From: Myxococcales bacterium
GTDB lineage: Bacteria; Myxococcota_A; Polyangia; Polyangiales; Houyiibacteriaceae
NCBI GenBank assembly: GCA_024640845.1
Contig: JAHEEE010000145.1
Location: 456-64,455, forward strand
Length of the DNA: 64,000 bases
Direction: 5' to 3'
The translations under genes were made by a program, and so were the position numbers. Every line of letters begins with the position of its first letter. The stretch's first letter is position 1. The notes beneath the pieces were generated by a model. It was not told where the DNA came from and ran no database searches. It was given only the letters and a program-made list of their open reading frames with translations. Below, in pieces: positions 3,379-27,617 of the stretch.

Positions 3379-3386
3379 GTAGAACG

Positions 3387-5006: not shown

Positions 5007-5032
5007 GGATTTGCAACGAAAGGAACACGAAA

Positions 5033-5233
5033 ATGAACATCGACAAACTGGTTTTTCGAGTCGCTGGGGTGATGATCATGACCGGCGTGGTACTTGCCTT
5101 CATTCACCACATCGGATGGCTCGCGCTTCCGGCGTTCGTCGGCCTCAACATGTTTCAGGCCTCCTTCACTGGCTTCTGCCCCATGGCGAGCATCGCAAAG
5201 CGCTTCGGCGTCGAGCAGGGAAGCGCGTTCTGA
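5033..5233 (+). CDS. DUF2892 (YgaP C-terminal-like) small membrane protein
   Basis: 66 aa with two hydrophobic helices and the characteristic ...FQASFTGFCP... motif. Confidence 0.6.
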   Translation: MNIDKLVFRVAGVMIMTGVVLAFIHHIGWLALPAFVGLNMFQASFTGFCPMASIAKRFGVEQGSAF

Positions 5234-5254
5234 GTGTGTGATCTTGCCGGGCTG

Positions 5255-7465
5255 CTAGTTTCGACCGTCGGCGTGGCAATCTAGGCAGAAGTTGGGGGGC
5301 GCAGGACCACTCGGGTAGTTGCGCACCTCTCTGTGCTTCGGATCCAACTCGCTTCGCGTGTGCTCGCCATCATGGCACCCGACACAGTCGGCGTTCTGGC
5401 CGCCGACCGGCGAGCCCAGTGCCACGTTGTGACAGGACGCGCAGTCGTTGCGGTATCGCGAGTGGGCTCCCGATTGAATCGGGAAAGCGCTTTCGGGATG
5501 GATGCCACCCGTGGCGGGAAGCCACGCCGACGTCGCATGGCAGCCCAGGCAGTCGCCCGTGCCTGGGTGTGTCGTAGTCGTCGGACGTTGTGATTCGTGA
5601 CAGTCGTAGCAGCGGGTCGGCGTCGGAGAATGTGCGAACGCTGACGGTGTCCAGACCGGATACGAGTGATGACAGCTCGCACACTCCGGGTCGTAGGTTT
5701 GCGTATGGAACGGGTTGTTCGAGCGGGGTTCGCTTCCATGGCAGCCGATACAGGTGGCCGGGAGGGGCGTATGAAGTGCCACCGGGTCGGCAAGTGTCCA
5801 GTCGGTGACGACGTGGCAGCCCGCGCAGTCACCGAGGCCCGCGGCAGATTGGTGCGTCGGCGTCGCGGGCCGCAGATCGCCATGGCAAGCGTTGCAGGCG
5901 CTCGGCACGGGTGCGTGAAGGAAGTCAGCCTGTGTCCAATCCGGATAGTTTCGGTGACAGCTGGCGCACTCTGTCTGCGAGACCTGCGTGTGGAAAATCG
6001 TGGGCTGCCGCGGCTCGTTCTGGTGACACGTCAGACAGGATGCCGGAAGCGGCGTGTGGAGAGTCGCCGGGTCCGCTGCGGCCCAGCTCGTGACGAGGTG
6101 GCACGATGCGCAATCGCCCTGGCCCGCCGCGGTTTGGTGTGTGGCAGTGTTTGGCCTCTTGTCCGAGTGGCAGTCTACACAAGTGCTCGGAGCGGGTGCA
6201 TGCGGGAAGTCCGCCAGCATCCAGTCTGGATAGTCGTAGTGGCAGCGGGCGCACTCGGGCTCTACCGACTGGATATGGTAGGTCGTGGGCTCTCGCGGCT
6301 CGGTTTGGTGACACGTCCTGCAAGACGCTGGGAGCGGCGCGTGGAGCGCGTCTGGGTCGGTGATTGTCCAGTCGTCGACGACGTGACAGCGGGCACAGTC
6401 GGCGAGCCCCGCGGCGGACTGATGGGTCGGTGTGCTGGGTCTCAGATCGCGATGACAGTCGCTACAGACGCTCGGCACCGGCAAATGCAGGAAGTCGGCG
6501 GGTATCCATTCCGGATAGGTCCGGTGACAGCGTGCGCACTCCGGTTCGAGGACCTGAGCGTGGAAGATCGTGTCGGGTTGCGAGTCGTTTTCGTGACACG
6601 TGAAGCACGACGCCGGAAGTGGTGTATGGATGGCCTCCGGGTCCGTCGTCGCCCAATCGTCTACGACGTGGCAACCGGCACAATCCGCGCGACCGGCAGT
6701 CGAGTCGTGCGTCGGATCCATGGGCCTCTCTTCGCTGTGGCAGTCGGTACAGGTGCTTGGCACGGGCGCATGAGCGAAGTCGGCGGGTACCCACTCCGGG
6801 TAAGTCTGGTGACAGCTCGCACACTCCGTCTCGACGGACTGAGTGTGGAAGACGGTCTCCGGTAGCGGGTCGTTCTGATGGCACGTGCTGCAAGACGCGG
6901 GCAGGGGAGTGTGAAGCTCCGCCGGGTCCGTGACGGCCCAATCGCTGACGATGTGGCAGGAGGCACAATCCGCCTGGCCTTGCGGCGCCTGGTGCGTCGG
7001 CGTGTCCGGTCTCCGGTCGGAGTGACAGTCCATGCAGACGCGTGTTGCTGGCGCGTGAAGGAAGTTTGCCTGCATCCAATCCGGATAGCTCCGGTGGCAG
7101 CCAGCGCACTCGGTCTCAAGATCCTGAGTGTGGAAGACGGTCTCTTGTCGGGTCTCGTCTGCATGGCAAGAGATGCACGATTCCGGAAGCGGCGTGTGGA
7201 TCGTCGTAGAGACTGCGGGCACCCACTCGCGCTCCGTGTGGCAGTCCTGACAGGTGGTGGGTAGCGTCTCGTGCGGTGGGCTCAGCGCGGCCTTGCGGTC
7301 CGCCTCATGGCAGGTGAAGCATTCGGCTTGGACGATGATGCCAGGCTCGTGAGACGGGGCGGCCGTACCGCTGCAGCCGGCACCGATCGAAGCCCCCGCG
7401 CTGACCGCGAGCACCACAGGCCACACGAGCCGCCGATGGCAACTAACCCCCATGGGTGATATCAT
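5255..7465 (-). CDS. 29-heme c-type cytochrome lipoprotein
   Basis: 736 aa. Signal peptide with lipobox (...SIGAG/C). I counted 29 CXXCH motifs, with extra His at regular spacing consistent with bis-His ligation. Confidence 0.9.
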   Translation of the reverse strand: MISPMGVSCHRRLVWPVVLAVSAGASIGAGCSGTAAPSHEPGIIVQAECFTCHEADRKAALSPPHETLPTTCQDCHTEREWVPAVSTTIHTPLPESCISCHADETRQETVFHTQDLETECAGCHRSYPDWMQANFLHAPATRVCMDCHSDRRPDTPTHQAPQGQADCASCHIVSDWAVTDPAELHTPLPASCSTCHQNDPLPETVFHTQSVETECASCHQTYPEWVPADFAHAPVPSTCTDCHSEERPMDPTHDSTAGRADCAGCHVVDDWATTDPEAIHTPLPASCFTCHENDSQPDTIFHAQVLEPECARCHRTYPEWIPADFLHLPVPSVCSDCHRDLRPSTPTHQSAAGLADCARCHVVDDWTITDPDALHAPLPASCRTCHQTEPREPTTYHIQSVEPECARCHYDYPDWMLADFPHAPAPSTCVDCHSDKRPNTATHQTAAGQGDCASCHLVTSWAAADPATLHTPLPASCLTCHQNEPRQPTIFHTQVSQTECASCHRNYPDWTQADFLHAPVPSACNACHGDLRPATPTHQSAAGLGDCAGCHVVTDWTLADPVALHTPLPATCIGCHGSEPRSNNPFHTQTYDPECASCHHSYPVWTPSAFAHSPTPTRCYDCHESQRPTTTTHPGTGDCLGCHATSAWLPATGGIHPESAFPIQSGAHSRYRNDCASCHNVALGSPVGGQNADCVGCHDGEHTRSELDPKHREVRNYPSGPAPPNFCLDCHADGRN
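5485..7198 (-). repeat. Six tandem ~95-aa tetraheme repeat units inside the 29-heme gene
   Basis: The unit HTPLPxSCxxCH..FHTQ..ExECAxCH..YPxW..A.F.HAP.PS.C..CH...RP..PTH....G..DCA.CH.V..W...DP..L recurs six times. Boundaries are approximate. Confidence 0.8.
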
Positions 7466-7477
7466 AGCCCGAACATG

Positions 7478-7497
7478 ATTAACCCGACTAGGTTAAT
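7478..7497. promoter_or_regulatory. Inverted repeat ATTAACC-N6-GGTTAAT upstream of the 29-heme gene
   Basis: Perfect 7-bp arms in a visibly AT-rich 94-bp gap, 13-32 bp upstream of the start codon at 7465. Confidence 0.3.
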
Positions 7498-7559
7498 TAA
7501 AAGTGCCCCTAGAATCAAAGCCTTACCTCGCTTCGGCCTTCGAAAGATGGAGAGTCTGC

Positions 7560-8345
7560 TCAATGACCGGCCAGGGCGGCGGCCGGCATCGCGAAGCGTG
7601 AGTCGTCGAGGGGCGGGTTGACTTCCACGGTCTCGACGGTGAGGGTGTGCATGTCACTCGATCCCTCGGTCCGCGTTTCCTGGCGGTGCGGGATGAGGAG
7701 ACCTCCCTCGGTCGGTTGCCAGTCTCGGTAGAAGGTTTCGACGCGCCGCTCGCGCCCACCGACCGTACGTAGGGCCTCGACCTTGAGCTCGAGACCGCTT
7801 TCCGGGTCGATGTACACCCAGCGCGCGGCACCCCTGGGCAAGGTCACCTCAAGCTTGACGGCATCCCGCCCCTCAACCGACTCCGTCCCCAGGTACTCCA
7901 CGTTGTGTCCACGGGGGCCGTAATCGAAGAGGAGGCCGTAGAGGTCGGCTGCGTCCGCCGTCTCACGCAGCTCCTTCTCGGTCATCGGCTCGGGTGCTGT
8001 CCGCCCCTGGAACGGCACGAGCTTCCACCCCTCTTTGCCGTCGGTGCACTGGATGGCGGTCTCCCCGTCGAAGACGAACTCGAGGCACATCTTGTCGGGC
8101 CGCTTCTGCTCGAGCACGTACGGCACCTTCATCCCCTTGCCCACGTCCATCTGGCCTGTGAGGCGAAGCGAGGAGACGGCGTCCCAGGAGTCGTCCCCGC
8201 CGCGCGCCTCGATGTTTTCGGCGACCAAGTTGCCTATGGCCCGTGCGCGTCCGAGCGGCGTCCCAGTCCAAGAAAACAAAAAGAGCGTCACCAGGCCGAG
8301 CCCGAGGGCCGCTGCGAGCACGGATATCAACGTACTTCGTTTCAT
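7560..8345 (-). CDS. Secreted LolA-fold-like (outer-membrane lipoprotein-sorting family) protein
   Basis: 261 aa with an N-terminal hydrophobic anchor or signal. Sequence style resembles the LolA-like/DUF4292-type lipoprotein carriers. Only 6 nt from the upstream gene. Confidence 0.5.
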   Translation of the reverse strand: MKRSTLISVLAAALGLGLVTLFLFSWTGTPLGRARAIGNLVAENIEARGGDDSWDAVSSLRLTGQMDVGKGMKVPYVLEQKRPDKMCLEFVFDGETAIQCTDGKEGWKLVPFQGRTAPEPMTEKELRETADAADLYGLLFDYGPRGHNVEYLGTESVEGRDAVKLEVTLPRGAARWVYIDPESGLELKVEALRTVGGRERRVETFYRDWQPTEGGLLIPHRQETRTEGSSDMHTLTVETVEVNPPLDDSRFAMPAAALAGH

Positions 8346-8351
8346 AGATCT

Positions 8352-8864
8352 CTACCTCACCACCAGCCCATCGACGCGGAACTCACCGATCTCGATGCTG
8401 ACTTGCTGGCCCGATTTCACTAGCTGGCCGGGGTTGGCAAAGAACATCCAGTAGGTGCGTCCCTCGATGGGCGCGTTCGAGTTGCGGAGCGCGCCGGTTT
8501 TGGCCGGCGTGGGCACGACGAGCGTTGCGCCCGTCTCCGTGTGGGTCAGCGCCGGCTTGGTCTGGCGCTCGAACAGCGCCTTCGCCTTCTCTGCGTCGAG
8601 CACGCGGTACCGAAACTCGAGCATGTAACCGGCCGCGGTTTGTCGCACGCCCATGAGCTCGACACCCCAGCGGCGCTTGATGTAGGTCTTGTCGCGGGGG
8701 TGGTGGGCCAGCTCGGCCGAGGCCGCTGTCGCAGGGGAGACGGTGGCCTGAGCCGATCCCTCGAGCGCTCGCACTTCGGGCGCGGGTCCAACGAGGGCAC
8801 CGGCGATGGCGAGGCCGACCGCGAGAAACCCTAGGAGCGACCGGGAGAAATGTAGATCCACCAC
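8352..8864 (-). CDS. Secreted hypothetical protein
   Basis: 170 aa with a signal-like N-terminus (LLGFLAVGLAIAGALVG). Coding-like composition. Sits 10 nt downstream of the giant gene. I recognise no motif. Confidence 0.55.
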   Translation of the reverse strand: MVDLHFSRSLLGFLAVGLAIAGALVGPAPEVRALEGSAQATVSPATAASAELAHHPRDKTYIKRRWGVELMGVRQTAAGYMLEFRYRVLDAEKAKALFERQTKPALTHTETGATLVVPTPAKTGALRNSNAPIEGRTYWMFFANPGQLVKSGQQVSIEIGEFRVDGLVVR

Positions 8865-8874
8865 CTAGCCCTCC

Positions 8875-11800
8875 CTAGGGGATCACGCAGGTGCCCTGGT
8901 TGACCGGGGGCCCTGAATTGGGCGGGCAGTCTGCGTCGACCGCGCAAGTCGCCCCAGCGTTATCTCCGAACTCACAGATTCCGGGTGCGTCCTCGTCGGC
9001 GCCGATGTCAAAGTCGCCTCCCAGCGGCCGGACATCGTTGTCGTAGTCCATGCTCGGCGCATTGGTCGCTGAGCCGGCGTCGATCGCCGATGAAGGCGCG
9101 GCGATGTGGTAGTTCCAGGGCGCGCTTCCGTCCGGCCAGGCCTGCGTCAGCGGACCGTAGCGCACGTCGATCCAGGCCGCGCCGCCCTCGTCCAGCGCGG
9201 GAAGCGCCAGCATCGGGCCAGGGGGGGTCTCAAGGGTGCGACCACCATTGCAGTAGGCGTTCACCAGCCCAGGGTCACCCGACGTATTGCTGGGGTCGTA
9301 GCCGCTTGCGTCGGTCAGCACCGAGGAGACCGGGTCGAGCATAAAGCCTCCGCCGAGGACCCCGAGATCCTGGTAGTTCGCGGGGGAGGGACACTCCCCG
9401 ACGATGCTCTGGCTGAGGACTGGCATGAGCCCGGCGCCCGCGGGCAGGGTGGCATCGTAGTGGAAGGAGCGGTTCTCCCACACGATGTTGTTCGACAGGA
9501 TCGGGTTCGAGAAGTCCCGGTAGTTGCCGGTGTTGTTTTGAACCGGGATGGCGGCGTTGAGCGCTGTGCTGTGGGGCTCCGAGGAGATGCCCGCCGGCTG
9601 GTTCGCGGAGACGTTTGGGTCCCCAGTCGTGAACGTGGCGGAGACCGTCGCCGTGCTGTCGTTGTGAGCGATCGTGTTGTTGACGATGAAGCTGCGCGCA
9701 GTGTCCTGCGTGGACACCCCGCCGCCCGACCAGCCCGCGACGTTGTTGACGATCATGTTGTTGTTGAGCGTCACGGCGTACCACATGCCAGGTCTGGCCC
9801 TCCCGTTATTGGGGTTGTTCGAGTTGGGGATGTCGCGGCCGTTGACGAACTGGGTGCGGACCCCGCCGCCGTGTCCCGCTCCGGCGTGGTTGCCCTGGAT
9901 GAGGTTGGCGTCCACGAGGACACTGCCCGAACCGCGGGTGAGGCCGTCGACCGCTGGCGGCTCTCCCGCAATGAACAACCCGCCCCCGGACCGCGTCGTC
10001 GCTTGAGCGAACGACTGGTTGAGGACGATCCGGTTGTCCTCGATCACGCCGTTGTTGCTGAGGCCCAGGTGCCCGATGCCGCCCCCATCGCCCGTCGTGA
10101 AGTTCCCGCAGACGAAGTTGTGGCTCACGACGTAGAAGTCGCTGCCGGTGCAGAGCGAAAGACCGCCGCCGGCCCCGCCGAGGCCACCGTTCTGGATGAT
10201 CGCGTTGTCGTGGATCTTCACGTGTGGGTTGAAGGCGAAGGGGCCCTCTCCGGTCAGCTCGAGGAACGGCCGGCCGACACGGATGCCGCCGTGGTACGAG
10301 CCGGCGTTGCCGAACACGCGGTTGTTGGCGATCTCGAGGCCGTGCGCGTACCCGTTGACGAAGATGCCGCCTCCGATGTCGCCACCTGTGATCGAGAAGC
10401 CGTCGATCCGAGACTCGAAGCTCCGGAAGGCGCTGGCCGGCGGCGGGCCCTCGCCGGAGTCGAACACGCCGAGCACCGTGATGGCGGCACCCTCCTCGGT
10501 CTCGACGCCGGCGGCCCCATCGGGCTGGGTGGGCAGGGCGTCCACTTCATCGGTGCAGCCCGCTCCGATCCCGAAAACGCAGTCCATTTTTGCCCGCCAC
10601 GCCGCCATCGTTTCCGCAGGGCGCTTTGCGGCATTGAGGAAGGTCGAACCGGCGCCCGCGCCCTGCAGGCGGACGGGCTTCCACATGATGACGAGCTCGT
10701 CGTACGCGCCCGGCTCCACGAGGATGAGCGCGCCCCGCGGCGCATTGTCGATGGCGTCTTGGATCGAGCCACCGGCCGCCACGCGGATCGGAATCTCATT
10801 GGACACGGTGACCGTCGCGGAGTGGACCGTGGAATTTCCATTGTCGCGCGTCACGACCAGCTCGCCGCTCATCTCCGTTGCCGGCGCCGTTGCCTCGATC
10901 GTGTCCGCATCCCAGCTGGTGATGGCAAGCGGCACGCCACCCACGGTGACGCTGCTGCCCGGTCCCTGAGCTCCGAACCCGAAGTCGCGCTGGATCGTTT
11001 TTTGCGCCGCGGCCCCGCTCGCGAGTGGTCCCTCGTAGGCCGGGTTCGGCACCTCGACCGAGCTGCCGAGGGAGTGGATCGTGAGGGTTCCGCCCGGGGC
11101 GACGAGAGGCCCCGCGCCCGTGCCGTCTACCTGGCGAACCGACGGCGTACCCGCAGGGAGCGCGCAATCCGGCGGGTTGTATCCGGAAGCGAAGGCCGAC
11201 ACTGGGAGCACCGGCGTATCGAGATACGTCGTCGTCCCCGGCATGTATTGGAACGTGTAGCAGAAGTTGCTGTACGCGGGGTTGTACTGGGGGTCGACGA
11301 TCGACTGACCGGGGTTGGCCGGGTCGGGGATCGGGCCCGGGTCGTTCATGCACGTGGTGAGCATCGCGGGTGAGTAGCCGCTCGGCGAGGGCATGTTCGC
11401 CGTGAACGTGGACGGCACGAGCCCGTTGATGCGCCCCCACTGGTCGGAGTAGATCCGCGAGATTTCCGCGCCCCGGTAGTCGCGGATCGAAACCGGCACG
11501 AAGGGGGGCGCCCACTTCTCACCGAACTGCGGCGAGAAGATGCTGAACTCCTGCGCCAGGTCGTCGAGAACCATGCCCGCGAAGTGGCCGGCGATCGGCG
11601 CTCCGGTGAAGAGGAAAAAGTCGGCGGCGGCTTGTCCCTGGTCGGAGAGGATGACCTCTTTGCGGTCGCAGAGCGGCCTCAAGTCGCCGGCGAACGGCGC
11701 CTCGATCATCTCGTCGGGGAAGAGGCTCAGGTACGGAGGCACCTCACGCATCTCGCCGACGCACCGCGGCTGGGCGAGCCCGGGCTCCGGGCCCATCGCC

Positions 11801-16803: not shown

Positions 16804-16820
16804 GGCTCTTCTCCTCTGCC

Positions 16821-18176: not shown

Positions 18177-18186
18177 TGCCGCTCTC

Positions 18187-19449: not shown

Positions 19450-19530
19450 GTCACTCGCTCCTTCCCGAAGGAGAGACAGTGCCTGGTTGGCCAGTCTCGC
19501 GTCCCGGCAGGGGTTAAGGAAATCGCGTCA

Positions 19531-19546
19531 GATCTTGTGATCTTGT
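19531..19546. promoter_or_regulatory. Tandem direct repeat GATCTTGT x2 upstream of the MCO operon
   Basis: Perfect 8-bp repeat, 82-97 bp upstream of the MCO start (19449), in the 180-bp gap below the AraC-type gene. Confidence 0.25.
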
Positions 19547-19629
19547 GTACAGGCGGATGCGAAGCTGTGAGCTACCTCACGAGTCGCGGCGGCCCATCGC
19601 CCCTAGGTGATCCCCCGGCAGCAGGCGCT

Positions 19630-20130
19630 CTACAAGGCTGCATCATGAAGCGTCGGTGCGATCTCTTCCCACCGGGGCGGACGTCCTGTGGGGTTCTCAT
19701 GCCAATAGCGGTGCACGATCTTCTTACACTCGTATGGTGTGATTCCCGTGCATTTCTTGAAGGCTCGTTCGAAGGTCCTGAGATCTTTGAAGCCGACGGC
19801 TAACGCCAAGTCGACGATACCATGATCGTGGTTGCTCAGCAGGAGCAGCGCGCGATTGATCCGCTCGCGTGAGAGCCAGTCATGGAAAGAGATACCTACT
19901 TTCTCCCGGAACAACCTGCAGAAGTACGTCTTCTCGAGCGCGACGAGCTTGGCCGCGTCAGCCAGACTGAACGGTTCGTCGAAGTGTTCGTCGACGTGCC
20001 GCTTGATCTTCGCCAAACGCGGGCAGAAGACGAACATGTGCTCGTTGATTGGAGAATCCAGAAGTAGCTGCGCTGCAGACAAAACGGACGACCACCATGT
20101 CCTGAGCCATCCTCTTGGGGGTGGGCCCAC
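19630..20130 (-). CDS. Small AraC-family (MarA/SoxS-like, DNA-binding domain only) transcription factor
   Basis: Double HTH signature (...FSLADAAKLVALEKTYFCRLFREKVGISFHDWL...IVDLALAVGFKDLRTFERAFKK..G.TP). No room for a ligand domain. The start is uncertain: GTG at 20130 or ATG at 20037. Confidence 0.75.
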   Translation of the reverse strand: MGPPPRGWLRTWWSSVLSAAQLLLDSPINEHMFVFCPRLAKIKRHVDEHFDEPFSLADAAKLVALEKTYFCRLFREKVGISFHDWLSRERINRALLLLSNHDHGIVDLALAVGFKDLRTFERAFKKCTGITPYECKKIVHRYWHENPTGRPPRWEEIAPTLHDAAL

Positions 20131-20201
20131 CAGGCGTGGAGAAGCTCACCCGACTTCAAATAGCTGACGCGAAGGTCTTTTTTTTCTTGTTTGGTGTCAA
20201 T

Positions 20202-20217
20202 ACGTAATTGATTACGT
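20202..20217. promoter_or_regulatory. Palindrome ACGTAAT-TG-ATTACGT in an AT-rich divergent intergenic region
   Basis: Perfect 7-bp arms inside the conspicuously AT-rich stretch 20160-20377, between the AraC-type gene and the 8-heme gene. Confidence 0.3.
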
Positions 20218-20377
20218 TATTGTCGACTCGGAGCGATTTTAACTATCTGAATTTCCTTATGACTTCGCGTGTCTTAGGCTTTTTACACGTCTTCGGGGGT
20301 GCGCAGCCCAGCTACCTAAGTTAAGCCTAATGTGCTATTTTCTAAGAGTTCGAGTTTCTCTTATCTGGCGAGTGGCG

Positions 20378-21064
20378 ATGCGACTTATGTGGATCGGGGT
20401 CCTAGGCGCAGTGGTGCTGGCCGCGGCCTGCACGGGCAGCACACAGGACCACGCAAGATTGGAGGTTCGCAGCAGTGATTGCGTCGTGTGTCATGCGGAT
20501 GACGTACAGCACGCGCTCAACCCTCCGCACGAAGGCTTTCCCGACACCTGCGGCAGTTGCCACGGCAACGAGGCTTGGAGCCCGGCGGCGTTCCAGCACA
20601 ACTGGCCTCTCAACGGTGCGCACGCGATGCTCGAATGCGCCGCCTGCCATCTTGGGGACCCACCCGTCTATGCGGGAACGCCTACGTTGTGCGTCGGCTG
20701 CCACCAGGACGACTACGACAGCAGCCCCTTTCCGGGGCACGCCGAGTTTCCAACCACCTGTGAGAACTGCCACACCACGACGGCATGGAGCCCAGCCACG
20801 GGAGGCACCCATCCCGAGAATGCGTTTCCGATCCAAAGTGGGCCGCACTCACGATACCGGGACGACTGCGTCTCGTGTCACAATCCCGAGCTTGGCTCGC
20901 CCGTGGACGGTGAGAATGCTGATTGCGTCGGTTGTCATGATGGACAGCACACACGCGCACAGATGGATCCCAAACACATCGAGGTTGGTGGTTATCCGAG
21001 CGGTGCAGCCCCTCCGAACTTCTGCTTGGATTGCCACGCGGACGGCATCAACCGCGACGACTAA
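20378..21064 (+). CDS. 8-heme c-type cytochrome lipoprotein
   Basis: ATG at 20378 gives MRLMWIGVLGAVVLAAA/C, a lipobox. 8 CXXCH motifs. The C-terminal ~85 aa are homologous to the C-terminus of the 29-heme protein. Confidence 0.85.
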   Translation: MRLMWIGVLGAVVLAAACTGSTQDHARLEVRSSDCVVCHADDVQHALNPPHEGFPDTCGSCHGNEAWSPAAFQHNWPLNGAHAMLECAACHLGDPPVYAGTPTLCVGCHQDDYDSSPFPGHAEFPTTCENCHTTTAWSPATGGTHPENAFPIQSGPHSRYRDDCVSCHNPELGSPVDGENADCVGCHDGQHTRAQMDPKHIEVGGYPSGAAPPNFCLDCHADGINRDD

Positions 21065-22377
21065 GCTTCGCCATACTTGGTGACGATCTCGATGCCGACA
21101 TTCTGAAGCAAGTCGGTCGGAGCCGTACCACCGACTTGGACCACCACAGCGTCGTTGTCGATGGAGATCGGCTCTCGCGACGCGTTCCGAAGCGAGACTC
21201 GATCCTGGAAGATCTCCTCGATCTCGGTTCCCAAAAGCGCCGTCAGCCGGCCGCCCTCGATCTCGGCTTCGATGCGCTTGCGATTCGGTTGACGGCACCT
21301 TGCAAAGGTGTTTTTCCGGTAGCTGATGGTCACCGACGCGCATTTTCCCCCATCGATCAATGCGAACGCGGATTCTACCGCCGCATTGCCACCGCCGACC
21401 ACCAAAACGTGCTGGCCTTGGAATGCCTCCGGCTCGATCACTCGGTAGACCACTTTAGACTGCTCCTCGCCGGGCACGTCGAGCTTGCGCGGAGAGCCAC
21501 GGCGGCCGAGCGCCAACAAAACGTTTGCGGTCTTGAAGACGCCTCCGCTGGATGACACCAGCCAGCTATCATCTGGTCCGCGCTCGATGTGCTGCACGAG
21601 CTCTCCGACCGCGACCTGCAGCCCGGTCTTGTCTCGAATGTCCTCCCAGAGCGTCACCAGTTGCTCTTTGCTCATCTTTCTCTTGGATACGCGGCCGTAC
21701 ATCGGGAAGTCGAGCGCTCCGGTCATCACGACCTTCGCGCGCGGATAGTGCGTGATCGTGCCGCCAAAGGCTTCACGCTCGAGCAGCAGCACACGCAGCC
21801 CCGCCTCCATCAAGCGAAGTGTCGCGCTGGTTCCGGCGGGGCCGGCGCCGACCACGACCGCATCCAGGGACTCGCCTGCGCCCCTGCGATCGCCAGCGAC
21901 GATGTGGTCCGCGGCTTGCCGGCCCTGGGAGACCGCATTGCGAATGAGTCCCATGCCGCCAAGCTCGCCGACGATGTAGATGCCTGGCTGGTTCGTTTGA
22001 AAGTCGGGATCGACTTCGGGCAGCTCGAGACCGCGCTTGGCCGTCCCGAAGACGAGGGAGATGGCCTGGACCGGACAGGCCGATGCACAGGCGCCATGTC
22101 CGATACAACCGAGCGGGTTGGTCAGCACGCCTCTGCCGTTGACCACGGTGAGCACGCTCTTCTCCGGGCAAGCGTAGACGCACGCCCCTGAGCCAATGCA
22201 GCGGAGTGGGTCGATTAGCGGATGAATGCTGGCCGGGACGATGTCGCCCATCGCGCTGAGCGCCTCAAGATCTCGCCGGCCGGTCTCAGTGCGGAGCTGC
22301 TCTCGCTTTTGCAGGAAAAGGCTCAGAATCCACGCAAACGCGACCAAAAAGCCCAGTGCAATCCAGGTGCTGCTCAT
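21061..22377 (-). CDS. Membrane-anchored 2x[4Fe-4S] ferredoxin-domain / FAD-NAD(P) (thioredoxin-reductase-like) oxidoreductase
   Basis: N-terminal TM helix (WIALGFLVAFAWILSLFL). Two cluster motifs: CIGSGACVYACP and CIGHGACASACP. Dinucleotide folds VVVGAGPAG and LVVGGGNAA. Start taken at the ATG at 22377 (the ORF runs to 22407). Its stop overlaps the convergent 8-heme stop. Confidence 0.85.
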   Translation of the reverse strand: MSSTWIALGFLVAFAWILSLFLQKREQLRTETGRRDLEALSAMGDIVPASIHPLIDPLRCIGSGACVYACPEKSVLTVVNGRGVLTNPLGCIGHGACASACPVQAISLVFGTAKRGLELPEVDPDFQTNQPGIYIVGELGGMGLIRNAVSQGRQAADHIVAGDRRGAGESLDAVVVGAGPAGTSATLRLMEAGLRVLLLEREAFGGTITHYPRAKVVMTGALDFPMYGRVSKRKMSKEQLVTLWEDIRDKTGLQVAVGELVQHIERGPDDSWLVSSSGGVFKTANVLLALGRRGSPRKLDVPGEEQSKVVYRVIEPEAFQGQHVLVVGGGNAAVESAFALIDGGKCASVTISYRKNTFARCRQPNRKRIEAEIEGGRLTALLGTEIEEIFQDRVSLRNASREPISIDNDAVVVQVGGTAPTDLLQNVGIEIVTKYGEA

Positions 22378-22444
22378 GAGAAGTTGGCCCTTTTGTGTCA
22401 ATCCCACCCATTTTGGTATGCTGCAAGCGTAACATGCAGGGCGG

Positions 22445-23359
22445 GTGGGGACCCGCTTGCTGTGGGGTAGCGTGGGGACAGAGGCGAAGAGCGGTCGTAA
22501 GCGCCGCGCGGATCGGAGCGCCGTCTTGCTGGTGCTGCTGGGGCTTTGCGTCCTCGGCTACATGCTCTGGGATCTCGGCGAGGACTTCTACCTCTCCGAC
22601 CTTCAGTCGAGGGTCGAGCATGGCGACTACGAAGCACTCCGACCGGGAGGTCTCGTCGGACATGGATACGGCATCGTCGGGACGATCCTGATCCTCGCCA
22701 ATCTGCTCTATCTCGCGCGACGCCGCTTCGCTCGGTGGTCGCTCGGCTCGATGGCGACTTGGCTCAACCTGCACGTCTTCACGGGTCTCGTCGGCTCGCT
22801 CCTGATCCTCTTCCATTCCGCCTTTCAGTTTCGGACACCCATCGCGGTGGTTACCGCGATTAGTCTCGGCGTCGTCGTGGCCACCGGGATCGCAGGCCGG
22901 TATCTCTATGCGCTCACGCCGCGTCCTGACCGCCAGGCGCTCGAACAGGCCCTGGCGTCGTTGGACGAGCTAGCACCCGGATGCAGTGCCCGCGTGTATC
23001 ACGCACTGGCGATTCACAAGGTCACCCAGGTCGACACGCACCGCTGGTTGCTCGCCAAGCTCGCGGCGATCCCCAAGTGGGCGCGCGACGCACGCTCGCG
23101 CGGTTTCATCGTCAGCTACGTCATCGAGGATGCTCCCGTTGCGGACATCCTCCAACGCAAGGAGCGAAGACGCTTTCGGAAGGCAAAGCGGGTGGTCCGC
23201 AAGTACGCAACGCGTGAGGTAGTCGCCACCATGGCCTCGTCGCTGCTTCAGTCCTGGCGCGGGCTTCATAGGTTTCTTGCCTTGATTCTCATTCTGTTGG
23301 TCCCCGTCCACATCGCGGTGGCTTGGATCTACGGCTATCGCTGGATCTTCTCGCAATGA
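22445..23359 (+). CDS. Polytopic membrane protein with two H-x13-H helices (putative di-heme cytochrome b / quinol-interacting anchor)
   Basis: About 5 TM helices. HVFTGLVGSLLILFH and HRFLALILILLVPVH each space two His by 13 residues. GTG start. The stop overlaps the next start (ATGA at 23356-23359). Confidence 0.65.
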   Translation: MGTRLLWGSVGTEAKSGRKRRADRSAVLLVLLGLCVLGYMLWDLGEDFYLSDLQSRVEHGDYEALRPGGLVGHGYGIVGTILILANLLYLARRRFARWSLGSMATWLNLHVFTGLVGSLLILFHSAFQFRTPIAVVTAISLGVVVATGIAGRYLYALTPRPDRQALEQALASLDELAPGCSARVYHALAIHKVTQVDTHRWLLAKLAAIPKWARDARSRGFIVSYVIEDAPVADILQRKERRRFRKAKRVVRKYATREVVATMASSLLQSWRGLHRFLALILILLVPVHIAVAWIYGYRWIFSQ

Positions 23360-24996
23360 GCGGACGCGCCACCGCCTCGATCATCATCGGCGTCGCGATG
23401 CTCGCCGCGGTGGCTGCCGGGGCCTTCGTCCCGAGGAGAACGGGCGCCCAGTTTTTATCGCCAGGGAAGCTCAGCAGCGCGCATGCGGAGATCGATGGCG
23501 ACGCCAACTGTAGCGAGTGCCACTCGACCGGGAGACGACTCGATACCGACTCCTGTCTCGGATGTCACGACGATCTTCGTGCTCGCATCCGGCAAGGACA
23601 AGGGCTCCATAGTCGCCCAGACTATCAGCAGAAGGACTGTGGCGGTTGTCACGTCGAGCACCTCGGGAGAAACGCCAAGCTCGTTCGGTGGCCTGGGGGG
23701 AGCGAAGCGCGGTTCGACCACCGAATGTCCGGCTGGCCGCTCCGAGGCGCGCACGCATCGGTTCGCTGCGCGGAGTGTCACGACGTGCCCAATCGTCGAG
23801 GAAACGCGACATATTTGGGGCTGAGTCGCGATTGCGTCTCTTGTCATGAAGATCCTCACGAGGGCACGTTTGCCGGCGCAGAGTGCACATCGTGTCACAA
23901 CGAAACCGACTGGGCTCAGGTCGACAACGTCCGAGCCAACCATCCCGGTCTGAGCCTCGCCGCCGGGCACGCGAAAACCAAGTGCGAGGACTGCCACGAC
24001 CAGGGCAACGTCGCGCCCCCGAGCATGGGATCTTCCTGTGTCTCCTGTCACGCGCAGGTGCATGATGCTGCGTTTGGCGATCGCTGCGAAAACTGCCACG
24101 CCGGCATTCGTTGGTTGGGTCTTCCGCGCAAGATCGGGTTGCAGGCGCACCCGAAAACAGGGTTCCCGCTCGAGGGGCTGCATCGAGACGCTCCGTGTAA
24201 GGGCTGTCATTCGCCCAAACTCTCGCCGGAGCGTCGCTACCGGCAGCTCGAGTTCGATCAATGCAGCGACTGCCATCGCGACGCCCACCGCGGGACCCTA
24301 GGGAAAGTGGATTGTGCAACCTGTCACGACGAGCACGGGTTCTGGCCAACATTGTTTAGCATCGAGCAGCACGGCCGCACGCGATTCCCCTTGGAGGGGA
24401 AGCATCAGGCGGCGCCCTGCACGAGTTGTCATCAGGGCAAACGGCCCCGCGTCAACCTCGAGCTCGCTGCCAAGGCCTGCGTCGATTGCCATGACAATCC
24501 CCACGGAGCGCAGTTCGCCGATGAGATGCGTTCCGGTGGGTGCGCGACTTGCCATTCGGAACGGGGTTGGGAGTCGCCCCGCATCGACCACAGCACATGG
24601 CCGCTCACCGGGGCCCATTCCGAGGCCGCGTGTGACAGCTGTCACACCCCTTCCAAGCAGGATCGACTGAGCGGTCGCGGAGCGACGTATGCGGGGGCGC
24701 CGCGCGAGTGTTCGGGTTGCCATCGCGACGTTCACGCGGGGCAGTTCCGGCTCACTTCGCCGGAACGAGAATGCGACGCCTGTCACATCACCCAGGCGTT
24801 CGAGATCGATGCCTTCGACCATGCGGAGCTCGCGTCGTACCCGCTCGAAGGCGAGCACGCCGACCTCGAGTGCGTTGCCTGTCACAAGAAGGAGCGTCTG
24901 CGGAGCGGCGCGCGCCCGGTGCGATATCGGCTTGGATACAGCGAGTGCGCCGATTGTCACGCGAACCCGCACGCCCGGAGAAAGGGAGCACGATGA
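23356..24996 (+). CDS. 20-heme c-type cytochrome (periplasmic or membrane-tethered)
   Basis: 546 aa from the ATG at 23356, with an N-terminal hydrophobic segment and 20 CXXCH motifs. F.H.....PL.G.H....C..CH repeats of the c7/c3 style. Confidence 0.9.
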   Translation: MSGRATASIIIGVAMLAAVAAGAFVPRRTGAQFLSPGKLSSAHAEIDGDANCSECHSTGRRLDTDSCLGCHDDLRARIRQGQGLHSRPDYQQKDCGGCHVEHLGRNAKLVRWPGGSEARFDHRMSGWPLRGAHASVRCAECHDVPNRRGNATYLGLSRDCVSCHEDPHEGTFAGAECTSCHNETDWAQVDNVRANHPGLSLAAGHAKTKCEDCHDQGNVAPPSMGSSCVSCHAQVHDAAFGDRCENCHAGIRWLGLPRKIGLQAHPKTGFPLEGLHRDAPCKGCHSPKLSPERRYRQLEFDQCSDCHRDAHRGTLGKVDCATCHDEHGFWPTLFSIEQHGRTRFPLEGKHQAAPCTSCHQGKRPRVNLELAAKACVDCHDNPHGAQFADEMRSGGCATCHSERGWESPRIDHSTWPLTGAHSEAACDSCHTPSKQDRLSGRGATYAGAPRECSGCHRDVHAGQFRLTSPERECDACHITQAFEIDAFDHAELASYPLEGEHADLECVACHKKERLRSGARPVRYRLGYSECADCHANPHARRKGAR

Positions 24997-25910
24997 GGCG
25001 TCTCACAGGCATCCTGCTCTGCGTGACCACTCTCGCGGTGGTCACGGCGATGGCGGTCGCCAAGGAGCCCGGCGAGAAGATCGATCGCTCGAGCGCATCC
25101 CGTCACAACTCGATCACATTGGGCATGGATTGCGGAAACTGCCACACCCCAGATGGCTGGCACATGGCCGGAGGGAAGTCCGGGGAGCGCTTCGACCATT
25201 CTAGAACCGGGTTTCCTCTCTCGGGTCGACACGCATCTGCTGCGTGCAACCAATGTCACAGCGGTGAGCGGCGTGTCACTCGCGAATGCGAGAGTTGTCA
25301 TGAGGACCCGCACCAGTCGCGTTTGAACCGCCGATGCTCGAGCTGTCACTCGTCGCGCCGATGGAACGACATGGGGCCGTTCGAGCTCCATCGGCGGACC
25401 CGGTTCCCGCTCACCGGGATGCATGCGCTCGCCGACTGCACCGAGTGTCACATACGCAACAACGAAAGGCAGTGGACTACGATCCAGAGCGACTGCTTTT
25501 CCTGCCATGCGTCCGACTATCTCGATCCGAATGTTCACCCGAGCCACCGCGGGACGGCTACGTCGCCGCCGTTTCCGCAGGACTGTTCGCAGTGCCATGT
25601 CGCAAGCGCATGGAGTCCCGCGTTCATCGATCCCACCAATCTCGCCTCGCCGGCTGCCGCAGCAGTCAGCGCGAAGCTCGGCGGGATGCTCATCCCGGCC
25701 GACCACGACAGGTCCTTCCCGATTTCGCGCGGTCCGCATCGCGGCGCTCCTTGCAATGGCTGCCACACCTCTTCTCGCGCGCCGAGACTCGTTCTGTGCA
25801 CCGGATGCCACGCCCACAACCCCATCAAGCTCCAGACTCAGCACGGACGCCGGGTGTCTAGCAGTGGGGCCGCTTGCCTCGGATGTCACCCAGGAGGGAT
25901 CGCACGATGA
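24993..25910 (+). CDS. 10-heme c-type cytochrome, soluble periplasmic type
   Basis: ATG at 24993 overlaps the upstream stop (ATGA). Cleavable signal with no lipobox (LAVVTAMAVA/KE). 10 CXXCH motifs. Confidence 0.9.
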   Translation: MRRLTGILLCVTTLAVVTAMAVAKEPGEKIDRSSASRHNSITLGMDCGNCHTPDGWHMAGGKSGERFDHSRTGFPLSGRHASAACNQCHSGERRVTRECESCHEDPHQSRLNRRCSSCHSSRRWNDMGPFELHRRTRFPLTGMHALADCTECHIRNNERQWTTIQSDCFSCHASDYLDPNVHPSHRGTATSPPFPQDCSQCHVASAWSPAFIDPTNLASPAAAAVSAKLGGMLIPADHDRSFPISRGPHRGAPCNGCHTSSRAPRLVLCTGCHAHNPIKLQTQHGRRVSSSGAACLGCHPGGIAR

Positions 25911-27583
25911 CGCGATGGCTCCTGCTCGGATGGGCGGTCTTGGCTCTGCTGGTGTTCTCGCAGGGCGCTCGGGCCGCATCGCGGCAGAGCGTCACTGTGA
26001 AGGTCGTCGACGTCGCGGGTGGGCGAGCGTATCTACGACCCGGTGAGTCCGCCGGTATTGGCGTTGGTTCCGTCGTAACCGTTCGGGGTCGTCGGTACCG
26101 CGTTGCCGGCGCGACCGAACAACACATCGTCGTCGAGATGAAGGAACGCGAGCTCCGAATAGGGATGACCGGAGTGGCTACCGCGAAGCGCCCCGAGGCG
26201 GCACCAGCCGAGCTTCCGACTCCCGAGCCACTGAGCGCCTACGAGGACCAGTGGCCGGACGCCGTCCCCCCCGCAAACGGGCAGACCCCTGAGTACGTTC
26301 CGTTGGGAAACTGGTCCGACCGCCAAAGAGTGGACCTCGCGCTTTCGACGAACGTTGGCGGCGTCATCGGGCTCAAAGAAAGCGAGTCGTCATTCGGGCG
26401 GGCTTCATTGCGCACCCGCCTTCATGCCGAGCCGTTCGAACAGCCCGTCTTCTTCGACGTCGATTTCGCCCTGCAGTCCTGGTTCGGAGGGGGCATCAGC
26501 AACCGTCCGGGCGGCTCGTCGCGACCGCTCGTGCTGGTTCGCGACCTCCAGTTTGGGTACGGCACGGCGCAAAGCGCACAGGTAGGTTTGGGGCGCATGC
26601 CGTTCGTCGCGGTCGGCGTCGGCCAGCTCGACGGGGCGCGCGTGCGGTCCCCATCGTGGGCGGGATTCTCCATCGGCGCTTTCGGCGGCACCTTGCCTAA
26701 TCCCTTGGACAACCTGCCGAGTCTCGAGGCTACCCGTTTTGGCGGAGAGCTCGTCTATCAGAATCTGGCTCTCGACGCTCAGCCCTTCGTCGCGCTTTCT
26801 GCCCATGGCTCAGTCTTCATGGGCAACATCGACGAGCGCCGCGTCAACGCCGAGTTCAGCGTGTTCCCTGGCAACGGTAGTCTGGCCGGTCATTTCGAGC
26901 TCTCGGTTCACGACGAGAACAACATATGGCAAGCGCCAAGGGTTCAAGTCAGCGCCGCTGGTCTGGACGCCTCCGTTCGTATTGGGCTCTTTCAGATCTC
27001 GGGCCGCTTCGACATGCGCTACCCGGAGCGCTCCTTGTGGCTGACGAACTACCTGCCGCTAGGCTACCTGTGCAACACGGTTCCGGATCCGACATCGAGC
27101 AATGGCGACCAGCTGGTCTGCCAGAACAGTAGCGACGCCCGATACTTCGGCGGATTGGACATGAGCTTCTCGTTCTCGCGGCTCGTCCTGCATGCAGGAG
27201 GCAATCTCGTCCACAGCGAGACCGAGGATGAGTTCGAGCAGCTCGCCGGCTATCTCCAGGCGCGAATTCTGCGCATTGCCGAGATCGCCTGGATGGACTT
27301 GTCGGTCGCGGCATACGCACGCTCGTTCGTGTCCGACTACGCCGCCCGCCTCGCGGCGGGCGTCAACATCGGCCAGGCGGGCGAGATCTCCGCATACTAT
27401 CGGGTGTCTCTGAACCAATACAACGCCTCACCCGACAACTTCCTACAGCAGTCGGCCGGTGGGATTTTCTATTGGTCGATCCTGGACGACCTCGATCTTG
27501 GTCTTCGTGTCGACGGCATGTTCGGCGAAGACGTGAGCGTCCTCGTGCTCGGCTCAAATCTGACTTGGCGGCCGTCCTGGTGA
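25907..27583 (+). CDS. Putative outer-membrane beta-barrel (porin-like) protein with small N-terminal soluble domain
   Basis: ATG at 25907 overlaps the upstream stop (ATGA). Signal peptide ...FSQGARA/AS. Long alternating beta-strand-like sequence. C-terminal ...NLTWRPSW. Confidence 0.7.
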   Translation: MTRWLLLGWAVLALLVFSQGARAASRQSVTVKVVDVAGGRAYLRPGESAGIGVGSVVTVRGRRYRVAGATEQHIVVEMKERELRIGMTGVATAKRPEAAPAELPTPEPLSAYEDQWPDAVPPANGQTPEYVPLGNWSDRQRVDLALSTNVGGVIGLKESESSFGRASLRTRLHAEPFEQPVFFDVDFALQSWFGGGISNRPGGSSRPLVLVRDLQFGYGTAQSAQVGLGRMPFVAVGVGQLDGARVRSPSWAGFSIGAFGGTLPNPLDNLPSLEATRFGGELVYQNLALDAQPFVALSAHGSVFMGNIDERRVNAEFSVFPGNGSLAGHFELSVHDENNIWQAPRVQVSAAGLDASVRIGLFQISGRFDMRYPERSLWLTNYLPLGYLCNTVPDPTSSNGDQLVCQNSSDARYFGGLDMSFSFSRLVLHAGGNLVHSETEDEFEQLAGYLQARILRIAEIAWMDLSVAAYARSFVSDYAARLAAGVNIGQAGEISAYYRVSLNQYNASPDNFLQQSAGGIFYWSILDDLDLGLRVDGMFGEDVSVLVLGSNLTWRPSW

Positions 27584-27617
27584 CGTGAGATAAAGGCTTT
27601 TCGCCAAAGGAGGAGCT

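Follow-up and report, generated by a model that had tools for sequence, protein, structure and literature searches.

A Myxococcales cytochrome and copper-oxidase locus read as a composite: a PCC3-type conduit with an inserted cassette of a putative heterotrimeric copper oxidase

Do the cytochrome and copper-oxidase genes packed into one ~22-kb region of a Myxococcales genome form a single machine, or do they represent two systems that have come to lie side by side? The DNA analyzed, referred to here as the window, is a stretch of 64,000 nt from a Myxococcales contig, and the region in question spans positions 5255-27583. The GC content of the window is high (60-67%), and proteins 80-90% identical to those of the window carry the label Polyangiales. 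A first-pass annotation, made from the sequence without database searches, had interpreted the region as one extracellular machine for metal redox chemistry. The evidence presented below favors, with moderate confidence, a composite region in which a native conduit resembling the porin-cytochrome cluster PCC3 is joined by an inserted cassette for a multicopper oxidase (MCO) that is predicted to be heterotrimeric. The features of the region are as follows.

5255-7465, minus strand: cyt29, a cytochrome of 736 aa with 29 CXXCH motifs and a Cys-containing signal peptide (probable lipoprotein); native cytochrome module
7479-7496, no strand: palindrome TTAACC-N6-GGTTAA, a candidate operator just 5' of cyt29, at the left insertion edge
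7560-8345, minus strand: LolA-like secreted protein, 261 aa, an accessory gene of the class A MCO cassette
8352-8864, minus strand: sm170, a small secreted protein, conserved accessory or subunit of the MCO cassette
8875-16803, minus strand: giant protein, 2,642 aa, with a ligand-free MCO paralogue at residues 1 to ~575 and ~2,000 adhesin-like residues after it
16821-18176, minus strand: mco451 (subunit B), 451 aa, a two-domain MCO paralogue recognized by Pfam
18187-19449, minus strand: mco420 (subunit A), 420 aa, a two-domain MCO paralogue recognized by its motifs and by alignment with 3G5W
19630-20130, minus strand: AraC-family regulator with HTH_18/HTH_AraC domains only, inside the inserted segment and no regular member of either module
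20131-20377, no strand: AT-rich control region and right insertion junction, holding the palindrome ACGTAAT-TG-ATTACGT at 20202-20217
20330-21064, plus strand: cyt8, a cytochrome with 8 CXXCH motifs, probable lipoprotein, likely start at ATG 20378
21061-22407, minus strand: membrane-anchored flavoprotein, 448 aa, with 2x[4Fe-4S] and FAD/NAD(P)-binding domains, divergent from the membrane-protein gene
22445-23359, plus strand: PCC3-type inner-membrane protein, 304 aa, with two WX3HX13H motifs among its five long helices and TGxxGRY on the fourth
23356-24996, plus strand: cyt20, a cytochrome of 546 aa with 20 CXXCH motifs, predicted to span the periplasm
24993-25910, plus strand: cyt10, a cytochrome of 305 aa with 10 CXXCH motifs, directly 5' of the barrel gene and predicted to be barrel-inserted or outer
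25907-27583, plus strand: outer-membrane beta-barrel, 558 aa, with ~22 strands and a small N-terminal beta domain

Two modules conserved independently of each other

The insertion is seen most directly by comparison with close relatives. Window positions 1-7497 and 20375-27585 are colinear with the loci of six species at 72-77% nucleotide identity, and cyt29 orthologues of 74-76% identity lie divergent from cyt8 in L081, L087, L089, L090, L094 and L098. In four of the six relatives the two genes are ~200 bp apart, while in L081 (4195-7937) and L089 (6386-7818) they are separated by 1.4-3.7 kb of duplicated flavoprotein/cyt8-like sequence. Because two relatives hold extra duplicated segments there, the cyt29/cyt8 intergenic region is, on comparative grounds, a rearrangement hotspot. 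The window has ~12.9 kb of extra DNA at this point (~7,500-20,370), comprising the LolA-like gene, sm170, the giant gene, mco451, mco420 and the AraC gene. The MCO cassette is absent from all six syntenic relatives, and since these have a complete, colinear conduit without it, the cassette is, as judged from the alignments, an insertion in the cyt29/cyt8 intergenic region. The left junction keeps the palindrome 5' of cyt29 and the right junction keeps the cyt8 leader, with homology resuming at ~20,300-20,430. No direct or inverted repeats of at least 9 nt occur at the junctions, and neither mobility genes nor an integrase accompany them. The GC content at third codon positions does not set the cassette apart from the genome, the values being 0.83-0.86 for the cassette as against 0.78-0.84 for its flanks and 0.69-0.78 for the cytochrome genes. 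Horizontal acquisition of the cassette is consistent with its affinities, because its closest relatives among the matches listed (65-75% aa identity) belong to Gammaproteobacteria, Holophagae and Vicinamibacteria.

The wider distribution of the genes also separates the two modules. Counts for the conduit refer to 80 loci reached through the membrane protein of the window (602 homologous proteins, the nearest named ones being Polyangiales). Counts for the cassette refer to the 160 best loci (80 + 80) from two genome scans for relatives of mco420, which list 486 and at least 580 loci in sets that may overlap. Around the membrane protein, cyt8 recurs in 75 of the 80 loci, the flavoprotein in 72, cyt20 in 77, cyt10 in 74 and the barrel in 49, and genes of the MCO cassette in none. 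This block is conserved in about 55 genomes of Polyangiales/Sandaracinaceae, and cyt29 together with cyt8, the Fe-S flavoprotein, the membrane protein, cyt20, cyt10 and the barrel is one module native to a Polyangiales-like lineage. All 49 loci with a barrel are from Myxococcota; the Bacteroidota, Ignavibacteriota and Gemmatimonadota possess a variant of the conduit with no detectable barrel homologue. The cassette is equally coherent, with mco451 following mco420 in 160/160 loci and a subunit C gene in 157/160. Several hundred species from different phyla carry it, and it hardly ever has cytochromes beside it. Multihaem cytochromes were found in the flanks of ~7 of the 160 cassette loci (~5/80 and 1-2/80), a count that covers the fetched flanks, which in loci organized like that of the window (class A, below) extend 10 kb and stop at the LolA-like gene.

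These counts bear on the proposal that all 12-13 genes constitute one obligate, co-inherited machine for metal redox chemistry, with the MCOs as the catalytic head of the conduit. In the window, the tight packing and shared control regions speak for it. So do the loci in which the cassette adjoins a cluster of the membrane protein, a 20/21-haem and a 23-28-haem cytochrome (Woeseiaceae L023, Kangiella L026 and Vicinamibacteria L034, in differing orientations) or lies near cytochromes of 24-38 haems (L051, L052, L232). However, the 12 genes are not found together as a block, given that no conduit locus has the cassette, more than 90% of the 160 cassette loci have no multihaem cytochrome in their flanks, the six syntenic relatives retain a complete conduit without the cassette, and elsewhere the cassette is accompanied by a monohaem MofC-like protein. 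The idea of one extracellular machine, with which the first-pass annotation had explained the region, is thus improbable. Under the composite interpretation, functional coupling may be hinted at by at least four unrelated lineages (the window and three metagenome-assembled genomes, MAGs) in which the modules adjoin each other. Since both modules are rare, the repeated independent adjacency is suggestive.

The packing itself is largely as first described, with gaps of 6-17 nt or overlaps of 4 nt between neighboring genes, but the LolA-like gene and cyt29 are separated by 94 nt. A perfect palindrome, TTAACCCGACTAGGTTAA, lies at 7479-7496, 5' of cyt29; 0.34 matches with up to 2 mismatches would be expected by chance in the window. 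A TTAACC-N6-GGTTAA palindrome is aligned 5' of cyt29 in L087, L094 and L098 as well, and the element is probably an operator for some regulator. The AraC protein was labeled a domain-only regulator, and Pfam indeed finds HTH domains alone; its homologue is absent from the syntenic relatives and present in 1/80 MCO loci. At the right insertion edge, an AT-rich stretch (20170-20340) between the AraC gene and cyt8 has a T-run and an inverted repeat (20202-20217).

Copper ligands partitioned between paralogous proteins

The proteins of the cassette are named here subunit A (mco420), subunit B (mco451) and subunit C (the N-terminus of the giant protein). Both mco420 and mco451 score above threshold for Pfam Cu-oxidase families, in agreement with the two MCO-type genes first described. 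Domain 1 of mco420 possesses the type 1 (T1) copper ligands H144, C190, H197 and M202 and four histidines of the trinuclear copper cluster (TNC), H147, H149, H189 and H191, within the motifs HTIHWH (144-149) and HCH...H....M (189-202). The TNC motifs of its domain 2 have been lost, and H266 is the sole conserved histidine there. In mco451, domain 1 has no copper ligands and no conserved histidine, and domain 2 has the TNC histidines H276, H279, H281, H419 and H421 within the motifs HPFHHHG (276-282) and WHSH (418-421). The eight ligand positions of mco420 are conserved in 79-80 of 80 homologues and the five histidines of mco451 in 74-76 of 78. The giant protein has no HxH, HCH or HxxHxH motif anywhere in its 2,642 aa. 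A reading of the oxidase as NirK-type (T1 plus type 2 copper) was rejected in view of the HxxHxH and HCH motifs, which are of MCO type, and of the four histidines on the partner domain.

The three proteins are paralogues. Profile alignment with hhalign relates the mco451 and mco420 families over their full length (E=1e-52) and the giant N-terminus to the mco451 family over both cupredoxin domains (P=100%, E=2e-43), with the ligand motifs substituted column for column between the paralogues. BLASTP of the giant protein against mco451 gives E=4e-15 for domain 1 and E=2e-4 for domain 2. The first-pass term 'split' MCO is therefore accurate in that the copper ligands are partitioned over two full-length, two-domain paralogues, and inaccurate in so far as it implies a gene cut in two.

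The best relatives of mco420 and mco451 in the PDB are the type C two-domain MCOs (2dMCOs) 3G5W and 2ZWN. In homotrimers of the 3G5W type, each chain gives the T1 site and four TNC histidines from domain 1, and four more histidines from domain 2 to the site of its neighbor. The TNC of type C 2dMCO homotrimers is formed between two subunits (PMC11761707). Like the enzymes from Nitrosomonas europaea (3G5W) and a metagenome (mgLAC, 2ZWN), the window proteins have two cupredoxin domains, with T1 in domain 1. In contrast to those homotrimers with three complete sites, no single chain here has a complete ligand set, and this holds across the family. Because the three paralogues carry complementary ligands (a full domain 1, a full domain 2 or none), we infer that A, B and C assemble into a heterotrimeric ring whose single T1/TNC site lies where domain 2 of mco451 meets domain 1 of mco420. 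Domain 1 of mco420 would supply the T1 copper and four TNC histidines, domain 2 of mco451 would supply the other four, and the ligand-free N-terminus of the giant protein would close the ring and tether it to an adhesin-like stalk of ~2,000 aa. The predicted heterotrimer would resemble ceruloplasmin, with its six domains and single TNC, by way of subunit specialization instead of gene fusion. No description of a split-ligand heterotrimeric MCO was found in the searchable literature. The 'heterotrimer' of Nmar_1354 (9CCK) was rejected as a precedent, being a proteolytic alpha-alpha-alpha' form of one gene product.

A different explanation of the same ligand pattern is that mco420 and mco451 share no site, mco420 being a T1 cupredoxin carrier and mco451 and the giant N-terminus being structural. 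Ligand-free cupredoxin folds are common as structural domains and the giant N-terminus is clearly non-catalytic, both of which fit this explanation. It is nevertheless unlikely to be correct. Purifying selection keeps four TNC histidines in each protein across ~160 loci and many phyla, these conserved half-sites lie in domains that face each other in 2dMCO trimers, and lone half-sites would have no reason for conservation. Moreover, the constant order and co-occurrence of the three genes noted above would be unexplained.

A role of the cassette in copper detoxification, as a cuprous oxidase of the CueO/PcoA/CopA type with its accessories, is less probable still. The best NCBIfam match of both MCOs is indeed the copper-resistance CopA subfamily, but the scores (TIGR01480, 55 and 43 bits vs a cut-off of 479; CueO, 32 and 21 vs 525) are far from those required. 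There is no Met-rich insert, and no cop/cus/cue genes neighbor the cassette in the window. The two-domain architecture also speaks against this role, which would leave the 2,000-aa adhesin fusion and the ligand-free paralogue without a function.

The giant secreted protein was correctly described as having an MCO-like N-terminus. Its Pfam domains are, in order, Cu-oxidase_3 (residues 77-178), Laminin_G_3, Big_9, cadherin-like, SdrD_B and beta-helix, with a laminin G (LamG) insertion at 191-400 between two cupredoxin domains. In class A loci, such as that of the window, subunit C is fused to the adhesin-like protein, whereas in class B loci the two are separate genes. Subunit C of class B has 330-650 aa and can be a plain two-cupredoxin protein of 331 aa, with the adhesin-like gene upstream. 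Fusion in one class and separation in the other is a Rosetta-stone pattern, which argues that the adhesin-like protein may bind subunit C. Of the 160 cassette loci, about 136-140 encode an adhesin-like LamG/Big_9/beta-helix protein (middle segment 70 + 70, C-terminal segment 70 + 66).

Two small secreted proteins accompany the copper proteins and may be accessory or assembly factors. The gene for sm170, a protein with about 115 conserved residues but no conserved His or Cys, directly follows the third cupredoxin gene in 61/80 loci of the first scan, and the protein has no match in Pfam, NCBIfam or the PDB. The LolA-like gene follows sm170 in 19/80 MCO loci, most class A loci ending before that position. 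While both proteins are present as first described, the 'LolA-like' label is weakly supported: the Pfam LolA_like match falls below the cut-off (E=0.0045), LolA_like and DUF620 match weakly, and LolA_like is matched by 3 of 12 homologues. The family alignment gives a PDB profile match to 9tp6, a lipoprotein-sorting protein (E=0.003), and the single sequence one marginal match. Overall, the MCO genes form a dedicated multi-protein extracellular system, as had been proposed.

Several further features were observed at other cassette loci. Downstream of class B cassettes (L044 15332-16906; L047 14943-17183 and 17625-19529; L045 17465-19291) lie genes for a subtilase, which in L047 is fused to Big_9/cadherin repeats, and for a MofC-like protein (Cytochrom_C plus a periplasmic binding domain), the latter seen in L045 and L047 and resembling the arrangement in Leptothrix mofABC and in Sideroxydans lithotrophicus ES-1. 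Two copies of the cassette per genome were seen in L218/L220 (OY970381.1), L239/L240 (DATGVM010000006.1), L254/L262 (QIAU01) and L004/L241 (MAG RI_92), some within ~25 kb on the same contig.

The proposed conduit and its inner-membrane partners

The plus-strand operon had been read as a porin-cytochrome conduit, and this reading holds well. A recount of haem-binding motifs agrees with the 67 CXXCH first reported (29 + 8 + 20 + 10). The four cytochromes contain one haem per 25-31 aa and lack CX3CH and CX4CH motifs, and Pfam multihaem families match all four. Among conduits, the closest match in organization is PCC3, a porin-cytochrome cluster defined bioinformatically and functionally unverified (PMC5566968; PMC10734462). 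Its inner-membrane protein has ~300 aa and five transmembrane helices, with WX3HX13H on helices 3 and 5 and SGXXG on helix 4, and its periplasmic cytochrome has about 21 (21-27) haems at 22-39 aa per haem (PMC5566968). The second, 'extracellular' cytochrome has 10-35 haems (PMC10734462). The genes Slit_1446-1449 are arranged as membrane protein, periplasmic multihaem cytochrome, second multihaem cytochrome and porin (PMC11429942).

The window shares this gene order and the very low ratios of residues per haem. Its ~300-aa membrane protein contains WX3HX13H twice and a small-Gly motif in its fourth helix, cyt20 occupies the place of the periplasmic multihaem cytochrome with 20 haems, one short of the published range, and cyt10 falls within the range of the second cytochrome with 10 haems, although the role of extracellular partner could in fact belong to cyt29 and cyt8. 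The barrel gene is also present, with ~22 strands at the small end compared with up to 42 reported. In contrast, the window belongs to the Myxococcota, has in addition probable surface cytochromes of 8 and 29 haems and, beside its type of membrane protein, a divergent Fe-S flavoprotein conserved across phyla. Its membrane protein is 22-27% identical to the proteobacterial ones fetched, with all motif residues invariant. These came from 38 loci (L161-L198) found with a Kangiella/Woeseiaceae membrane protein as the query. In about 29 of the 38 clusters (e.g., L163 8928+, L183 8817+), the cytochrome gene directly after the membrane-protein gene encodes exactly 21 CXXCH in ~520-550 aa, whereas the one after it has anywhere between 5 and 51 haems.

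The membrane protein was first noted for two H-x13-H helices, which are present as WLNLH-x13-H and WRGLH-x13-H. W106/H110/H124, G148/G151/R152 and W271/H275/H289 are invariant among 40 homologues, with T147-G148-x-x-G151 in place of SGXXG, and the two WX3HX13H motifs are predicted to be bis-His sites for haem b. An AlphaFold2 model has five long helices (mean predicted local distance difference test, pLDDT, 85.4). Foldseek of this model against the PDB returned nothing below E=0.6, and Pfam Ferric_reduct does not match the protein. A NADPH oxidase (NOX)/cytochrome-b561 fold was dropped for the membrane protein, the model having no PDB fold match.

The flavoprotein gene adjoins the membrane-protein gene divergently in 72/80 loci of Myxococcota, Bacteroidota and Gemmatimonadota and in 33/38 proteobacterial loci, and the protein is not named as a PCC3 component in the PCC3 literature examined. 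The first description of a membrane-anchored 2x[4Fe-4S] flavoprotein was accurate, since a hydrophobic helix at the N-terminus was found together with two 4Fe-4S motifs and a Pyr_redox domain (Pfam Pyr_redox_3, E=1e-34, and Fer4 families). Its adjacency across phyla, together with the N-terminal anchor and its positive-inside flank, suggests a NOX-like path that may lead from NAD(P)H through FAD, 2x[4Fe-4S] and two haems b to a periplasmic wire. HX13H on two helices and a conserved adjacent Fe-S flavoprotein would allow an analogy with NOX and ferric reductases at the level of motifs. Wiring to the quinone pool had been among the first-pass proposals; the conserved flavoprotein points to cytoplasmic NAD(P)H at least as strongly.

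The product of cyt29 matches Pfam Mtrc-MtrF_II-IV_dom at 60.9 bits (cut-off 30), and cyt8 and cyt29 would be surface lipoprotein cytochromes. cyt20, with 27.3 aa per haem, aligns over ~545 aa with the 20/21-haem cytochromes of L023, L026 and L034 at 27-36% identity, and a PDB sequence search with it gave no match. cyt10 gave no MtrA match at E<=0.01 in the PDB and one marginal match to the nine-haem cytochrome 1ofw (E=0.0067). The scores of cyt29 and cyt20 against the DmsE-family NCBIfam models are far below cut-off.

The outer-membrane barrel was confirmed by an AlphaFold2 model built from 37 homologues (pLDDT 84.3), which has ~22 long strands over residues 142-554 and top Foldseek matches in the PDB that are all outer-membrane barrels. 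These matches are generic (TM 0.3-0.4), MtrB is not among the top 50, and the barrel could not be assigned to MtrB or to any other specific family. With 81 proteins the barrel family is small; no Pfam domain covers it, and its named members are Myxococcota. Compared with MtrCAB, MtoAB, PioAB and the Geobacter Pcc conduits, the module likewise brings together a multihaem cytochrome in the periplasm, a barrel in the outer membrane and lipoprotein cytochromes at the surface, with the MtrC/MtrF domain II/IV match of cyt29. It differs from MtrCAB, MtoAB and PioAB in that cyt10 and cyt20 have no MtrA-family sequence match and the barrel has ~22 strands rather than the ~26 of the MtrB type. The inner-membrane partner is also a dihaem-b-type protein with a flavoprotein, not CymA/ImoA. 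Electrons would pass from the cytoplasmic-side flavoprotein to the five-helix dihaem-b membrane protein, on to the 20-haem wire and then to the 10-haem cytochrome in the ~22-strand barrel.

On the outer sides of the module, window positions 23-5006, 5' of cyt29, encode a membrane protein of 849 aa and two secreted proteins, one of 269 aa and the other, which is acidic, of 546 aa; all are syntenic in the relatives. In L081, L089 and L090 (~15,100-17,900), ~2.7 kb lies between the barrel gene and a phosphofructokinase-like gene; it is missing in the window (27583-27619).

Possible electron donors and a possible joint role of the modules

The cassette is found in Gammaproteobacteria (Woeseiaceae, Thiomicrorhabdus chilensis, Thiohalomonas), in Thiobacillus, Sideroxydans, Gallionellaceae, Paraburkholderia, Steroidobacteraceae and Sedimenticola, and also in Acidobacteriota, Desulfobulbaceae, Myxococcota and Planctomycetota. 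Because Desulfobulbaceae MAGs carry it, a link with O2 reduction by cable bacteria was considered, but the single paper located on the subject contains no evidence at the level of genes.

A similar cluster has been noted in S. lithotrophicus ES-1, where Slit_1816-1818 were described as 'three tandem MCO genes' (He et al., 2017; PMC5566968). Within Slit_1812-1818, Slit_1817 and Slit_1818 have MCO motifs, and Slit_1816 is large, motif-free and adhesin/polysaccharide lyase-like; the cluster also encodes small hypothetical proteins, SCO1/SenC and a cytochrome (Keffer et al., 2025; PMC11429942). Growth on magnetite raised the abundance of all these proteins relative to Fe(II)-citrate (PMC11429942). 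Both clusters have three adjacent secreted cupredoxins, two with copper motifs and a third that is large and motif-free, followed by small proteins. The reported taxonomic spread (Burkholderiales, Paraburkholderia, Steroidobacteraceae and Myxococcota) agrees with the relatives of the cassette, and the Sideroxydans MAGs L066, L199 and L200 share gene order with the window cassette. In contrast, the window cassette is flanked by the 29-haem cytochrome and AraC, and the publications call two of the proteins 'canonical' MCOs without mention of a ligand split.

Other large secreted or surface MCO systems, implicated in Fe/Mn redox reactions, are OmpB/OmpC of Geobacter sulfurreducens, MofA of Leptothrix and Mnx (MnxEFG) of Bacillus. 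Mnx provides a precedent for a multi-subunit MCO, although MnxE/F are not MCO paralogues. In OmpB, MofA and MnxG the large polypeptide bears all copper sites, whereas the giant protein of the window bears none and catalysis would sit in its two small partners. Geobacter OmpB needs a type II secretion system. In the T. chilensis DSM 12352 locus (L007 3161-8539), four minus-strand genes directly 5' of the cassette resemble a type II secretion set as judged by N-terminal sequences and sizes, one with a GspG-like pseudopilin N-terminus GFTLIELMVVVVILA and the others of 407, 491 and 707 aa.

Electrons would enter the T1 site of the oxidase from an insoluble or surface-bound reductant, and O2 would be reduced to water. 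The most likely donor would be mineral or sorbed Fe(II)/Mn(II), and in the genome that holds the window surface multihaem cytochromes may also serve. A laccase-like function is a lesser but real possibility, in which the cassette would oxidize organic polymers (phenolics, humics or lignin-derived material) or cross-link exopolymers, the LamG/beta-helix domains would bind carbohydrate and the neighboring cytochromes would be coincidental. The Laminin_G_3, polysaccharide-lyase-like fn3_3 and beta-helix domains agree with such a function, as do the abundance of the cassette in soil heterotrophs (Paraburkholderia, Acidobacteriota and Steroidobacteraceae) and the fact that the 2dMCOs SLAC and mgLAC are laccases. 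Its wide occurrence also in sulfur and iron lithotrophs (Thiobacillus, Thiomicrorhabdus, Sideroxydans, Gallionellaceae and Sedimenticola) argues the other way, as do the induction of the ES-1 cluster on magnetite (PMC11429942) and the repeated adjacency of the cassette to cytochromes of extracellular electron transfer.

Several observations weigh against the composite of a PCC3-type conduit and a heterotrimeric metal or mineral oxidase. The proposed A-B-C stoichiometry is read from the pattern of ligands and from the joint occurrence of the genes. Soil heterotrophs (Paraburkholderia and Acidobacteriota) commonly carry the cassette, and this distribution fits an organic, laccase-type substrate as well as a metal. 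Neither SCO1/SenC nor MofC-like (Cytochrom_C plus Peripla_BP_6) genes lie in or beside the window cassette. Slit_1812-1818 of ES-1 itself was not among the matches listed in the pattern-limited scans, so that the link to it depends on organization, taxonomic spread and homologues in Sideroxydans/Gallionellaceae MAGs. Likewise, the PCC3 type clusters (Slit_1446-1449 and that of L. cholodnii SP-6) were not among the matches listed, and the link to PCC3 therefore depends on described features and gene order. The window barrel has no detectable sequence similarity to the barrels of the proteobacterial clusters, and the analogy with NOX and ferric reductases stays at the level of motifs because the membrane-protein model has no PDB fold match. 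Finally, downstream cytochromes in the position of cyt29 may have been missed because the class A flank ends at the LolA-like gene.

Both modules had been published as uncharacterized candidates, PCC3 (PMC5566968; PMC10734462) and Slit_1816-1818 (PMC5566968; PMC11429942), so the first-pass claim that the composition was undescribed is half right, and the block is a lineage-specific juxtaposition. New here are the conserved split of the TNC ligands, a ligand-free third paralogue as a putative tether, the conserved Fe-S flavoprotein partner of the membrane protein and the recurrent adjacency of the modules. A more far-reaching proposal is that the region holds the first genetically heterotrimeric 2dMCO, tethered by an adhesin and working with a PCC3-type conduit, with a NOX-like dihaem protein and the Fe-S flavoprotein at its inner-membrane end, to wire cytoplasmic NAD(P)H (or quinol) to O2 or minerals outside the cell. 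If true, a terminal or mineral oxidase on the outside would be connected electrically across the entire envelope; this must be regarded as speculative and rather doubtful.

In conclusion, both modules belong to the unexplained genes for extracellular electron transfer in iron oxidizers. The ligand split provides the three-cupredoxin cluster with a falsifiable model of one site per A-B-C heterotrimer with C as the tether, and the model would also account for the constant company of the three genes. If true, the oxidase would be a natural intermediate, with symmetric trimers of 2dMCOs on one side and asymmetric oxidases of six domains, such as ceruloplasmin, on the other. For the conduit, the near-universal Fe-S flavoprotein makes a link to NAD(P)H possible at the inner membrane, where one to quinones would have been expected. 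Genomes with adjacent modules are a natural testing ground for cooperation between a cytochrome wire and a copper oxidase in mineral oxidation or extracellular O2 reduction.

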